Source of the DNA: a virus
Reading direction: 5' to 3' (one strand)
Virus genome (UHGV): UHGV-0169625
DNA length: 44,509 bases
Part shown: positions 7,961 to 12,600 of the stretch, in pieces
Numbering within the stretch: position 1 is the first letter of the stretch
Layout of the letters: the number at the start of each line of letters is the position of its first letter
Program-made: the position numbers and the translations under genes
The notes under the pieces: generated by a model
The model's input: the letters and a program-made list of their open reading frames with translations, nothing else
Told to the model about the DNA's origin: nothing
Databases searched by the model: none

Positions 7961-7989
7961 TTGCACGCCCCAACATAATAGGATACTAT
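7961..7989 (+). promoter_or_regulatory. sigma70-like promoter (rightward) with embedded palindromic operator
   Basis: TTGCAC (7961-7966), 17-nt spacer, TACTAT (7984-7989); 7975-7992 reads ATAATAG-gata-CTATTCA; about 35 nt upstream of ATG 8024. Confidence 0.5.
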
Positions 7990-9494: not shown

Positions 9495-9523
9495 TTGCAC
9501 GCTAGGATAGAATAGGCTACTAT
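9495..9523 (+). promoter_or_regulatory. sigma70-like promoter (rightward) with embedded palindromic operator
   Basis: TTGCAC (9495-9500), 17-nt spacer, TACTAT (9518-9523); 9509-9526 reads AGAATAG-gcta-CTATTCA. Confidence 0.5.
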
Positions 9524-10386: not shown

Positions 10387-10592
10387 TTATGGTACAGAGA
10401 TACTCTAAGTATGGGTCTGACAACCATTTCGGGGACCGTCACGGGGCGTGGGTTAAGTTTGAGGACTACCAGAATCTTGACCACAAGCTGTTGGAAGTTG
10501 AAGCCGAGTTACAGAAATACAAAGACCAGTTTCCGGATTACGTCGAGTGCGCGAACTGCGGGTCAATTACACATGTGGAAGGGGTGGAGTGA
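10383..10592 (+). CDS. hypothetical protein (69 aa)
   Basis: track ORF, start overlaps upstream stop. Confidence 0.45.
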   Translation: MIMVQRYSKYGSDNHFGDRHGAWVKFEDYQNLDHKLLEVEAELQKYKDQFPDYVECANCGSITHVEGVE

Positions 10593-10897
10593 TGATTGAC
10601 GCGTATATCTATTGGAGTGGGGTAGCTTTTAATTTTACCCTTATCCCTGTGATTCTTTGGGCACTTTGGTGTTTGGTACTGTTCCCCGCCGTAGAAGCTG
10701 CTAGCATGGCGCGGTACTACCGAAGAATCGGAAAAGTTCACGGGATTAAAGTGCACAGCTGGTTCAGGCTTTTCCGCGCTAACTACGAATTGTTTGGGCG
10801 CACGTTCACAGCACAGCGGTGCTCTTACGGCTATTGGGAAGGAGTAGGGCGATGGGAAGTATTTCCTGCGGAGGCCGAAAATGAGCCTCGCAACTGA
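10592..10897 (+). CDS. small membrane protein
   Basis: start trimmed to ATG 10592 (overlaps upstream TGA); hydrophobic segment FTLIPVILWALWCLVLFPAV. Confidence 0.45.
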   Translation: MIDAYIYWSGVAFNFTLIPVILWALWCLVLFPAVEAASMARYYRRIGKVHGIKVHSWFRLFRANYELFGRTFTAQRCSYGYWEGVGRWEVFPAEAENEPRN

Positions 10898-11174
10898 TAT
10901 CCTGAAACGAAGCGGCCTTGCGCCGCTGTCACCGAGAGTTAGAACACAGATATACAAGCGCCGCCATAACGCGCTGTACCCTGAGATTCAGGCCAGACGC
11001 AAAGCGGTCCGCGCCTGTGGATTCCAGAACGGGAAGGCCGTTAACCTCGGTGAGTTTAAAACACAGGAACGGGCAGCTATTGCGAACCGGCTATTTAATT
11101 ACTGGAAATCGCTGGGATACGATGATATTCCGACGAAACCACAGAGGCGACAATACATCTGGAGACATAAATAA
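10881..11174 (+). CDS. hypothetical basic protein (97 aa)
   Basis: track ORF; last gene before the lysis cassette. Confidence 0.45.
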   Translation: MSLATDILKRSGLAPLSPRVRTQIYKRRHNALYPEIQARRKAVRACGFQNGKAVNLGEFKTQERAAIANRLFNYWKSLGYDDIPTKPQRRQYIWRHK

Positions 11175-11206
11175 ACCGTTATTAGGATAATTCCTACCCG
11201 TGGTAT

Positions 11207-11242
11207 CCTCCAGTTACTGCATACTTAATACGCACCTGGAGG
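11207..11242 (+). promoter_or_regulatory. hairpin sequestering the holin Shine-Dalgarno site
   Basis: CCTCCAG (11207-11213) pairs with CTGGAGG (11236-11242) across a 22-nt loop; the 3' arm contains the GGAGG SD located 7 nt before the holin TTG start. Confidence 0.4.
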
Positions 11243-11249
11243 ATTCATC

Positions 11250-11558
11250 TTGGATAAATTTACTGAAACAGTGACGGGGTGGCTTCTCGCCGCCGCACTG
11301 GTCGGTGGATTGGTCGGGCTAAGACAACATAAAAAGTCTATATCCGGGCCGATTGACGGACTGGTATTTCTTCTCACCGGCTTCGCGTGTGCCATTTTCG
11401 GCGCACCTCTTGCGGCTCAATGGTTCGGTATTACTGGTGAGCGCGAGATAGCTGGCCTCGGATTCATCATTGCCATTCTCTGGATGCCTATCTATTCCCG
11501 CCTTTCTGGCATCGTATCGGGCGGCGATATTGCCCGCCCAGGAGGACCGCATGACTGA
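11250..11558 (+). CDS. holin (three predicted TM segments), TTG start
   Basis: 102 aa; hydrophobic stretches GWLLAAALVGGLVGL, LVFLLTGFACAIFGAPLAA, GLGFIIAILWMPIY; immediately upstream of endolysin. Confidence 0.6.
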   Translation: MDKFTETVTGWLLAAALVGGLVGLRQHKKSISGPIDGLVFLLTGFACAIFGAPLAAQWFGITGEREIAGLGFIIAILWMPIYSRLSGIVSGGDIARPGGPHD

Positions 11559-11823
11559 GCTATTCTGGTTTGTCGTAATGCTGGCGATGGGCGCTTCGTC
11601 CCTGTTCAACGTGTATAATGAACACGTGGACGACGGGCTATTTGGGCGTGTGCTCTATATCCTGACTGCTATCGTCTGCGCCGCCGGGTGTATCCACCTG
11701 TTACAAGGCAGCATGTCACCTACGTTGCCCGAGACGTTAATCACATTAGTTGCGCTGCGTCAGATTCGTCAGGCGTGGCTGTCGTATGGAGGACATAAGT
11801 GTGTCTCGAAATATTTCAGATAA
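11551..11823 (+). CDS. holin/antiholin-like membrane protein (two TM segments)
   Basis: start trimmed to ATG 11551 (overlaps holin stop); LFWFVVMLAMGASSLF and VLYILTAIVCAAGCIHLL. Confidence 0.45.
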   Translation: MTELFWFVVMLAMGASSLFNVYNEHVDDGLFGRVLYILTAIVCAAGCIHLLQGSMSPTLPETLITLVALRQIRQAWLSYGGHKCVSKYFR

Positions 11824-12286
11824 TGGATTGCATTTCACTGCCGCATTTGAGGGGTTCCGTGGAACTGCGTATCGTGCTACCCCGAATGAGAAGTACCTGA
11901 CTATTGGTTACGGGCACTACGGGCCAGACGTAACGCCCGGAAAGACCATCACGCCGGGACAAGGACTCCTGCTACTGAATCGCGATATGGCTAAGGCCGT
12001 AGCTGCGGTTGACGCAGCAGCACACCATTCACTGGCACAGGCGCAGTTCGATGCAGTGTGCGACCTGGTGTATAACGCGGGTGCTGGTGTGATTGCAGCT
12101 ACTACAGGCACGGGTAAGGCGCTGCGTTCCGGTGATATTGCGACTCTGCGGGATAAGCTGGCGCTGTTCATCAACCAGAACGGCAAACCGTTACTTGGCC
12201 TGCGTCGCCGTACAGCCGGTCGTTTGGCGCTGTTCGACGGTAAACCGTGGCGGGAGGCGGAAGCTATCGGGAGGGCTGTTAAATGA
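11786..12286 (+). CDS. endolysin, phage lysozyme (GH24-like)
   Basis: AAFEGFRGTAYRATPNEKYLTIGYGHY matches the lysozyme catalytic region (E...D...T); start set to first ATG 11786, in-frame GTG 11801 has a better SD. Confidence 0.8.
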   Translation: MEDISVSRNISDNGLHFTAAFEGFRGTAYRATPNEKYLTIGYGHYGPDVTPGKTITPGQGLLLLNRDMAKAVAAVDAAAHHSLAQAQFDAVCDLVYNAGAGVIAATTGTGKALRSGDIATLRDKLALFINQNGKPLLGLRRRTAGRLALFDGKPWREAEAIGRAVK

Positions 12287-12413
12287 TGGACGAATATGAA
12301 GGCGTTTAGTAAACTTATCCCTACGCTGTTTGTGCTTGCATACTAAGCCCCGGTAAACCCGAAGCAGCAGCCCAAGCGGTGGAGACTGCGTAGGGTTCAA
12401 GGGCTTATGACCG

Positions 12414-12444
12414 AAACCCGGACCGCGAATCCGGGTTTTATTTT
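12414..12444 (+). terminator. rho-independent terminator after lysis cassette
   Basis: stem ACCCGG/CCGGGT with 9-nt loop, then TTTATTTT. Confidence 0.7.
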
Positions 12445-12449
12445 ACCAA

Positions 12450-12478
12450 TTGACACCTGAGACCAATCAGACGATACT
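12450..12478 (+). promoter_or_regulatory. sigma70-like promoter between two terminators
   Basis: TTGACA (12450-12455), 17-nt spacer, GATACT (12473-12478). Confidence 0.4.
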
Positions 12479-12484
12479 TAAATC

Positions 12485-12549
12485 ACCTCCTGTTCCATCC
12501 CTCTGCTCTCCAGTTTTATCCCGGCACTGACCCAGCCGGGATTTTTTTT
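12485..12549 (+). ncRNA. candidate small RNA (~65 nt) with anti-SD-like 5' sequence
   Basis: predicted transcript from promoter 12450-12478 to terminator 12518-12549; no ORF with SD; 5' region AUCACCUCCU resembles the 16S rRNA 3' end. Confidence 0.3.
12518..12549 (+). terminator. rho-independent terminator
   Basis: stem ATCCCGGC/GCCGGGAT, 9-nt loop, then TTTTTTT. Confidence 0.7.
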
Positions 12550-12571
12550 ATCTATTTTCTGCAATGACTAG

Positions 12572-12600
12572 TTGACTATTACCCTCGACCTTATTATATT
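12572..12600 (+). promoter_or_regulatory. sigma70-like promoter
   Basis: TTGACT (12572-12577), 17-nt spacer, TATATT (12595-12600); about 30 nt upstream of ATG 12634. Confidence 0.45.

Follow-up and report, generated by a model that had tools for sequence, protein, structure and literature searches.

A conserved hairpin covers the holin ribosome binding site in Kagunavirus and related phages and carries a promoter-like element on its 5′ arm

The virus genome UHGV-0169625 (44,509 nt, analysed over its whole length and called the window below) is a complete or nearly complete Kagunavirus genome, that of a K1G/K1ind-like siphovirus of the Guernseyvirinae infecting Escherichia coli. Just upstream of holin 1, the gene that leads its lysis cassette (11250-11558, + strand), an inverted repeat places the Shine-Dalgarno (SD) sequence of the holin in the stem of a hairpin, and an element resembling an extended -10 promoter lies over the 5′ arm of that stem. 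The hairpin with the SD inside it, the motif and the geometry between motif and arm recur in at least six phage lineages. We propose that RNA reading through from upstream promoters would carry the closed hairpin, and that transcripts initiated within the hairpin would have a free ribosome binding site, which would make the arrangement a host-sigma70 analogue of the control of T4 gene e; we give this reading a probability of about 0.5. The comparison of sequences suggests a switch between RNA species rather than a constant brake on translation.

The stem pairs ATCCTCCAG (11205-11213, + strand; the 5′ arm and anti-SD strand) with CTGGAGGAT (11236-11244, + strand; the 3′ arm), two 9-nt segments found by repeat search and in folds that are 100% complementary and lie 22 nt apart. 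The loop between them (11214-11235) folds into a weak inner helix of UGC 11218-11220 with GCA 11232-11234. A preliminary description of the window, made from its letters, had paired CCTCCAG 11207-11213 with CTGGAGG 11236-11242; that pairing is present and the complementarity is longer, at 9 bp. The same description named GGAGG, which we place at 11238-11242 within the 3′ arm, as the only SD of the holin, and reading 11229-11249 for a further purine-rich SD yielded none. A spacer of 7 nt (ATTCATC) leads from GGAGG to the TTG at 11250. The isolated hairpin has a folding energy of -14.2 kcal/mol, where shuffles average -5.1 (z -4.62), no shuffle out of 200 was equally stable, and the hairpin is kept in both the minimum free energy (MFE) and the centroid folds of the wider leader. 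Opening the SD costs 10.6 kcal/mol, the highest value among 72 crude gene calls (median 2.1, 90th percentile 5.7), and 9.3 kcal/mol in read-through RNA folded with 100 upstream nucleotides. A 9-bp repeat alone is not rare, since repeats of at least 9 nt within 45 nt number 36 pairs in the window, mostly overlapping palindromes; what takes the hairpin beyond chance is the position of the repeat over the SD and the conservation of that position.

The TTG start at 11250, likewise named in the preliminary description, is sound on the grounds of homology, third-position substitutions and invariance. Upstream, the frame is stopped by a TAA at 11226-11228, which leaves TTG 11250 as the first possible start. 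It aligns with the ATG of the Dhillonvirus homologue (ATG-GAT-AAG), both proteins beginning M-D-K; from codon 5 onward substitutions among relatives fall on third codon positions; and the TTG is unchanged in all 38 Kagunavirus leaders, a sample drawn from IMG/VR and GenBank. Sister lineages start with TTG, GTG or ATG, with non-ATG starts in three lineages, and homology points to a TTG or ATG 5-11 nt past the 3′ arm as the start of holin 1. Existing annotations vary: RP180 (L036, 1292) has holin 1 starting at the GTG of codon 8, EcoPhCCP1 (L037, 1148) starts far upstream at an ATG, the in-frame TAA having been lost to a loop substitution, and the JGI gene call in the metagenomic lineage L056 (1501) starts at a GTG inside the hairpin. 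At 398-400 of contig L086, from the Serratia group, ATT replaces the ATG start of its relatives (...TTTTTGATT GAC...), and is either a rare ATT start or the mark of a sequencing error or a defective phage. A dual-start holin/antiholin arrangement was rejected for the window, where the other nearby in-frame start is the GTG of codon 8 (11271): it has no SD, the additional residues MDKFTET are net acidic, and the codon is missing from homologues in other genera.

The comparative set comprised 85 sequences with 37 unique leaders from at least six lineages, namely Kagunavirus, Jerseyvirus, Cornellvirus-like phages, Serratia/Enterobacter phages, Dhillonvirus and the metagenomic lineage L056; homologues of holin 1 with 25-50% identity lead the lysis cassette in five further groups beside Kagunavirus. 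The SD lies in the 3′ arm in the MFE fold of every one of the 37 unique leaders. Arms, SD and TTG are conserved through the 38 Kagunavirus leaders, in a genus in which about one third of the phages have swapped the upstream gene and holin identity goes down to about 80%. The few helix changes all keep or extend pairing: A11212>G in L037 and L038 (EcoPhCCP1, PK1) gives a G-U pair, T11214>G in L012 and L037 adds a tenth pair, and the Salmonella kagunaviruses LSPA1 and PK1 have a 13-bp stem, ATCCTCC(A/G)GTTAC/GTAACTGGAGGAT, through two substitutions in the loop, at the counterparts of 11233 and 11235. The loop is highly conserved within the E. coli kagunaviruses.

Between lineages the letters of the stem change and complementarity is retained. 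To the Kagunavirus stem correspond GTCCCAGTGAG/CTTACTGGGAC in Dhillonvirus, ATCCCCCGTG/CACGGGGGAT in L056, AATCTCCGAA/TTCGGAGATT in Jerseyvirus, CTCCGTAT/ATACGGAG in the Cornellvirus-like phages, and CCCCCGAA/TTCGGGGG, CCCCTG/CAGGGG and GCCTCGG/CTGAGGC in the Serratia/Enterobacter group. A pair table anchored on the upstream hexamer shows 3-5 Watson-Crick or G-U pair types at most stem positions; the table was built on each sequence's own MFE fold, so that its percentage of paired positions is circular, and the non-circular evidence comes from shuffles and chimeras. Over 14 lineage representatives the SD costs 6.6-20.6 kcal/mol to open. When the 5′ half was shuffled (300 times for each), no shuffle reached the native SD lock in 13 of the 14, the exception being Tsm2 (12 of 300), and 156 cross-lineage chimeras had a mean lock of 5.7 kcal/mol versus 13.9 for the native leaders, with none reaching the native mean. 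RNAalifold, run on a MAFFT alignment of 20 leaders, returned no consensus structure, since the arms of different lineages do not line up in register.

The distant homologues of Pectobacterium Arno18 and Salmonella PCSE1 are without this architecture, their holin being coupled to an upstream endolysin or placed in another context, and the feature therefore belongs to the design of the cassette and not to the whole protein family. Word-indexed protein searches for holin 1 homologues recovered close relatives only. An exhaustive search gave 31 distant representatives, whose alignment was too divergent for locus finding; P0024 and P0025 gave no viral contigs, and P0027 no phage match.

The element over the 5′ arm, which the preliminary description overlooked, reads TG-G-TATCCT (11201-11209, + strand), with TG at 11201-11202, the free base n at 11203 and the hexamer at 11204-11209; a promoter role is predicted for it. 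It has the form of a sigma70 extended -10, that is TG, one base and TAnnnT, with a purine (A 11216) 7 nt past the hexamer, and would be active as such by prediction. The galP1 element, TG-n-TATGGT, is a comparable extended -10. Throughout the 38 Kagunavirus leaders TG and TATCCT are invariant and only n varies (G/C). Every lineage has either TGnTAnnnT or TTGCAG-18-TATACT overlapping or abutting the 5′ arm in equal register: TG-A-TATAGT in Dhillonvirus, TG-T-TAATAT with TTGGAC-17 upstream in L056, TG-(T/C)-TAATCT in Jerseyvirus (n varying within this genus too), TG-(A/C)-TAA(T/C)CT in the Cornellvirus-like phages and, in the Serratia group, which has no TG, an invariant TTGCAG-18-TATACT with a variable spacer. 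Where TGn is present the -35 is poor; the Serratia group, without TG, has a -35, and L056 has TG plus a -35. Each lineage has TG or a usable -35, as would be expected of working promoters.

Upstream of the SD, the unsupervised MAFFT alignment of 20 leaders has no invariant positions other than the hexamer's T and A, and the last hexamer T is nearly invariant; the T, A and final T of a -10 hexamer are the positions that weigh most in sigma70 recognition. In Dhillonvirus, the Cornellvirus-like phages and the Serratia group these three bases are conserved even though they lie outside the stem, so pairing does not explain their conservation. The C-rich anti-SD stretch always occupies positions 7-12 in hexamer numbering, which is the discriminator interval between the -10 and the start site, and a purine stands 7 nt past the hexamer in nearly all lineages.

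Other promoter-like letters occur in the vicinity. A classical promoter, GAGACA-18-GATAAT at 11162-11191, was rejected, as its -35 is not conserved and falls within a gene that many relatives have swapped for another. Cornellvirus-like leaders (L071-L073, L075) have a perfect TTGACA 6 nt before TGnTAATCT, about 20-25 nt before the hairpin, and jerseyviruses (L059-L070) have TTGTCG 9 nt before the element; in both the spacing is wrong for a -35, and in MFE folds the stretch pairs weakly with the start-codon region.

From standard sigma70 spacing we predict that transcription would start at about 11216 (A), in the loop. The predicted consequence for the ribosome site is large: across five lineages the SD costs 9.3-18.8 kcal/mol to open in read-through RNA versus 0.5-2.2 kcal/mol in RNA from the predicted start. 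In the window the cost in RNA starting at 11216 is 2.0 kcal/mol, and this RNA shows no unusual structure (z -0.09). The SD opens cheaply there because the anti-SD arm is missing from that RNA.

On the proposed mechanism, polymerase from strong host-type promoters at 7961-7989 and 9495-9523 would cross the small genes that precede the lysis cassette and run on into it. Both are consensus-like sigma70 promoters of the form TTGCAC-17-TACTAT on the + strand and face the cassette; the one at 9495-9523 is a likely source of read-through RNA, and between the upstream promoters and 11205 one weak terminator-like site (10439-10451) and no other is predicted on the + strand, making read-through of upstream transcription into the holin leader plausible. 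In such RNA the C-rich arm 11205-11213 would pair with the SD arm 11236-11244, the 30S subunit would be kept off and holin 1 would not be made. A weak host sigma70 extended -10 promoter at 11201-11209, sitting over the 5′ arm, would give transcripts from about 11216 that are without the anti-SD strand; their GGAGG would be free and holin 1 translatable. The TTG start would keep the yield of holin 1 low even on these short RNAs.

Several points weigh against this proposal. TATCCT has 4 of 6 consensus positions and Kagunavirus is without a recognisable -35. A count of the loose motif TGNTANNNT over the window gave 76 versus 74 expected, so the case for a promoter rests on register and cross-lineage conservation. 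Published in-silico promoter and terminator lists of two kagunaviruses include none here, and literature searches on Kagunavirus, Jerseyvirus and Dhillonvirus found no transcript 5′-end or expression data and no description of the hairpin. The sense hairpin is the more stable in 19 of the 37 leaders and the antisense hairpin in 17. The ribosome sites of holin 2 and endolysin, the next genes of the cassette, are exposed, so that read-through RNA would still express both, and a constitutive embedded promoter would leave the delay of holin synthesis without explanation. The four-of-six match without a -35, the genome-wide frequency of the loose motif and transcript ends that are predicted and not mapped keep our confidence at about 0.5.

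The main rival is that the hairpin is a constant translational brake with no internal promoter, every holin 1 mRNA carrying it; breathing of the stem or a late release, together with TTG, would then produce a trickle of holin that sets lysis time, and release may come from RNase E cleavage in the AU-rich loop or from a phage factor. We consider this possible but rather doubtful. It draws on the same real and conserved hairpin, buried SD and TTG, on the non-ATG starts of three lineages, on the missing -35 of Kagunavirus and on a start site that is predicted and not mapped; the conserved loop of the E. coli kagunaviruses could mark a processing or binding site, and in lambda S an upstream stem-loop limits access to the SD (bioRxiv 10.1101/2025.05.14.654169). 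The preliminary description had the hairpin and the TTG throttling translation of the holin; both would indeed lower it, but a helix costing 9-15 kcal/mol is nearer an off switch. De Smit and van Duin, in work on ribosome-site structure, are said to have found that a helix of that cost is roughly one. The opening costs of 9-19 kcal/mol seen here are nearer to off than to throttled, and a comparable structure in T4 gene e cuts synthesis 100-fold (PMC3014915). A brake would also leave the conserved TA...T, the TG or -35 and the -10-to-arm geometry outside the stem without a reason. Nor should a terminating ribosome melt the stem, judging from ribosome footprints, the upstream stop (11172-11174) being 30 nt from the arm. 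By the same reasoning we rejected translational coupling to the upstream gene, since the stop lies 30 nt from the arm (15 nt where relatives have an HslV-like gene upstream), a distance that a terminating ribosome should not bridge.

In some genera the hairpin also resembles a terminator. Stems of 10-12 bp followed by 6-7 T within 9 nt occur in Dhillonvirus (L039-L055), Jerseyvirus (L059-L070) and L056, as they would if the hairpin were mainly an intrinsic terminator or insulator ending the upstream operon, with the SD in its G-rich arm only through tight space. In these same three groups the T-run, TTTTTT or TTTTATT, leads straight into the start codon, and the hairpin stands 5-8 nt before the holin start. 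As an account of the feature as a whole we find this improbable. The Cornellvirus-like phages, Tsm2 and L077 have no T-run yet keep the SD in a stem, and the cassette would still need a promoter inside or after the hairpin, which returns to the embedded promoter that we favour. For the window itself terminator function was rejected: the loop is long at 22 nt, the tail TCATCTTGG has four scattered T and no U-tract, and a terminator scan made no call.

A wider version joins these roles in Guernseyvirinae and Dhillonvirus, with one structure combining upstream termination or silencing, the ribosome-site lock and the holin promoter. The C-richness required of the anti-SD arm would give this promoter a GC-rich discriminator and with it sensitivity to ppGpp/DksA and to the level of the initiating NTP, so that lysis time would be tuned to host physiology and not to a phage late factor. 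We hold this to be a speculative extension with little probability.

Covariation also bears on whether the repeat acts as DNA. It could serve as the binding site of a dimeric regulator, of phage or host, that represses or activates a lysis promoter, or could act in an antisense RNA, and a perfect palindromic pair of 9-mers over a promoter-like element would suit this; so would the antisense hairpin, which at least equals the sense hairpin in stability in about half of the leaders, and the presence of another palindrome (AATAGnnnnCTATT) inside promoters of this phage. We regard it as very improbable. Arm length (7-13 bp), sequence and spacing (6-22 nt) vary freely with complementarity kept, which is the pattern of a nucleic-acid helix, and G-U pairs are tolerated on the sense strand, both in the A11212>G change of L037 and L038 and in G-T closing pairs of the Serratia and Dhillonvirus stems. 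The 9-mer is found nowhere else in the genome, and the locus has no gene on the minus strand.

Over 10800-12400, around the leader, the window shares 96% identity with Escherichia phage vB_Eco_ORH_001 and 92-93% with K1G and K1ind1-3. Holin 1 (102 aa) matches PHROG 2359 'holin' (E 2.4e-32), and by hydropathy has three hydrophobic segments; it fits the holin pattern of a small membrane protein with hydrophobic segments and a charged C-terminus, encoded beside an endolysin, and hole formation is a prediction. Holin 2 (11551-11823, + strand, 90 aa; PHROG 2508, E 1.7e-34) has two hydrophobic segments by hydropathy. Its ATG overlaps the stop of holin 1 (ATGACTGA) and it has a strong SD of its own, AGGAGGA at 11540-11546; folding against shuffles showed no unusual structure at its ribosome site. 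The endolysin, a phage lysozyme (11786-12286, + strand; PF00959, E 7e-27), has neither a signal nor a SAR segment by hydropathy. The identical three genes are annotated in relatives, where the GenBank labels 'class II' and 'class I' for the holins appear swapped with respect to the usual topology-based classes. An Rfam search found no RNA family that fits the holin leader; its sole match was COG2908 RNA at 11532-11592, the junction of holin 1 and holin 2, below threshold (20.1 bits versus a gathering score of 58.7, E 0.015) and most likely due to chance.

Upstream of the leader, TAGGATAATTCCTA at 11182-11195 is what is left of an HslV-like peptidase gene, namely its final codon and stop (GGA TAA). 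This gene sits before the holin in many kagunaviruses and jerseyviruses (e.g. L007, L008, L036, L059); in the window it is swapped for 10881-11174 (PHROG 9632, function unassigned). Homology resumes at about 11178, and the leader therefore moves with the lysis cassette as a module.

Both upstream promoters, at 7961-7989 and 9495-9523, carry the palindrome AATAGnnnnCTATT in the spacer, which at 9495-9523 reads AATAGGCTACTATT. The 14-nt AATAGnnnnCTATT occurs in 12 copies versus about 1 expected (2202, 4500, 4544, 7977, 9188, 9511, 12567, 18195, 19824, 28722, 35872 and 42446), at many of these sites within the 17-nt spacer of a consensus-like sigma70 promoter; those at 2202, 4500 and 42446 are minus-strand promoters with TTGACA or TTGACG-17-TATAGT. 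Two genome papers list AATAGnnnnCTATT as a 'phage RNA polymerase promoter' (PMC9825357, PMC7203180). The phages that carry it encode no RNA polymerase, and it has the look of a phage regulator's operator set within promoters of host type. Downstream, the lysis transcription unit ends in a terminator-like hairpin at 12414-12445 (+ strand), AAACCCGGA/TCCGGGTTT with a T-run behind it. Next come a promoter-like TTGACA-17-GATACT (12450-12478), a second terminator-like hairpin (12520-12550, CCCGGC/GCCGGG plus T8) and a promoter-like TTGACT-17-TATATT (12572-12600), so that 12414-12600 forms a dense terminator-promoter junction between the lysis unit and the next block of small genes.

Holin expression sets lysis time, a central fitness trait that is relevant to therapeutic phages, and K1-specific kagunaviruses, jerseyviruses and dhillonviruses are common candidates for therapy and biocontrol. 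If the embedded-promoter reading is true, widespread siphoviruses would avoid premature lysis by a T4-like RNA logic that uses host sigma70 polymerase only, and the leader would be a compact, portable design in which three parts overlap, a promoter, an insulator and a lock on the ribosome site. For engineering, lysis timing should respond to single-base changes in the 5′ arm, in the TG or in the TTG, and the 37 distinct leaders from at least six lineages make the hypothesis directly testable. For annotation, the leader helps with a gene whose start is called differently by different gene callers, at TTG, at a downstream GTG or with an upstream extension.

Hairpins over ribosome binding sites that act only on read-through RNA are already known, from T4 e, soc, gene 49 and I-TevI and, reportedly, from IS10/IS50. 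What is unusual here is the host extended -10 promoter that we predict, the holin as the target, the terminator-like doubling in some genera and the covariation over at least six lineages. With rho-independent terminators the feature shares a GC-rich stem and, in Dhillonvirus, Jerseyvirus and L056, a T-run; it differs in that its universal part is the SD in the stem and not the T-run. The fold-back inhibition of transposase translation in IS10 and IS50 is said to have been described by Davis, Simons and Kleckner in 1985 and by Krebs, Schulz and Reznikoff. There, reportedly, outside transcripts likewise hide the ribosome site and the element's own promoter starts inside the hairpin, insulating a dangerous gene; the setting is however a mobile element and its transposase, not a phage lysis gene, and there is no sequence relationship.

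The original work on the sdi stem-loop and dual start of lambda S is reportedly that of Blasi and Young. The likeness lies in a stem-loop of a holin leader that occludes the SD and, by prediction here, in initiation efficiency setting lysis timing. Lambda splits initiation between a Met1 antiholin and a Met3 holin, whereas no dual start exists here, and its leader stem-loop, which restricts ribosome access to the SD (bioRxiv 10.1101/2025.05.14.654169), is short, weak and present on all late transcripts, in contrast to the 9-13 bp and the promoter-like element found here.

Closest is T4 gene e, whose ribosome site is hidden on long early transcripts, with 100-fold lower synthesis, and whose late promoters lie within the 5′ strand of the hairpin, in a layout that T4 relatives share (PMC3014915); soc, gene 49 and I-TevI are alike. 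The two systems differ in the polymerase signal, a host sigma70 extended -10 or -35/-10 pair here and the gp55-dependent TATAAATA in T4; in the phage, here a small siphovirus for which no late sigma factor is known; and in the gene, a holin here and the endolysin in T4. The starts are predicted in our phages, and in some lineages the hairpin is terminator-like as well. Common to both are a lysis gene placed past earlier transcription units, an SD or start codon buried on the long RNA and a -10-only element, promoter-like here, in or just ahead of the 5′ strand, whose transcripts are free of that strand and translated (by prediction in our phages), and in both the arrangement is kept among relatives while the sequences of the stems differ.

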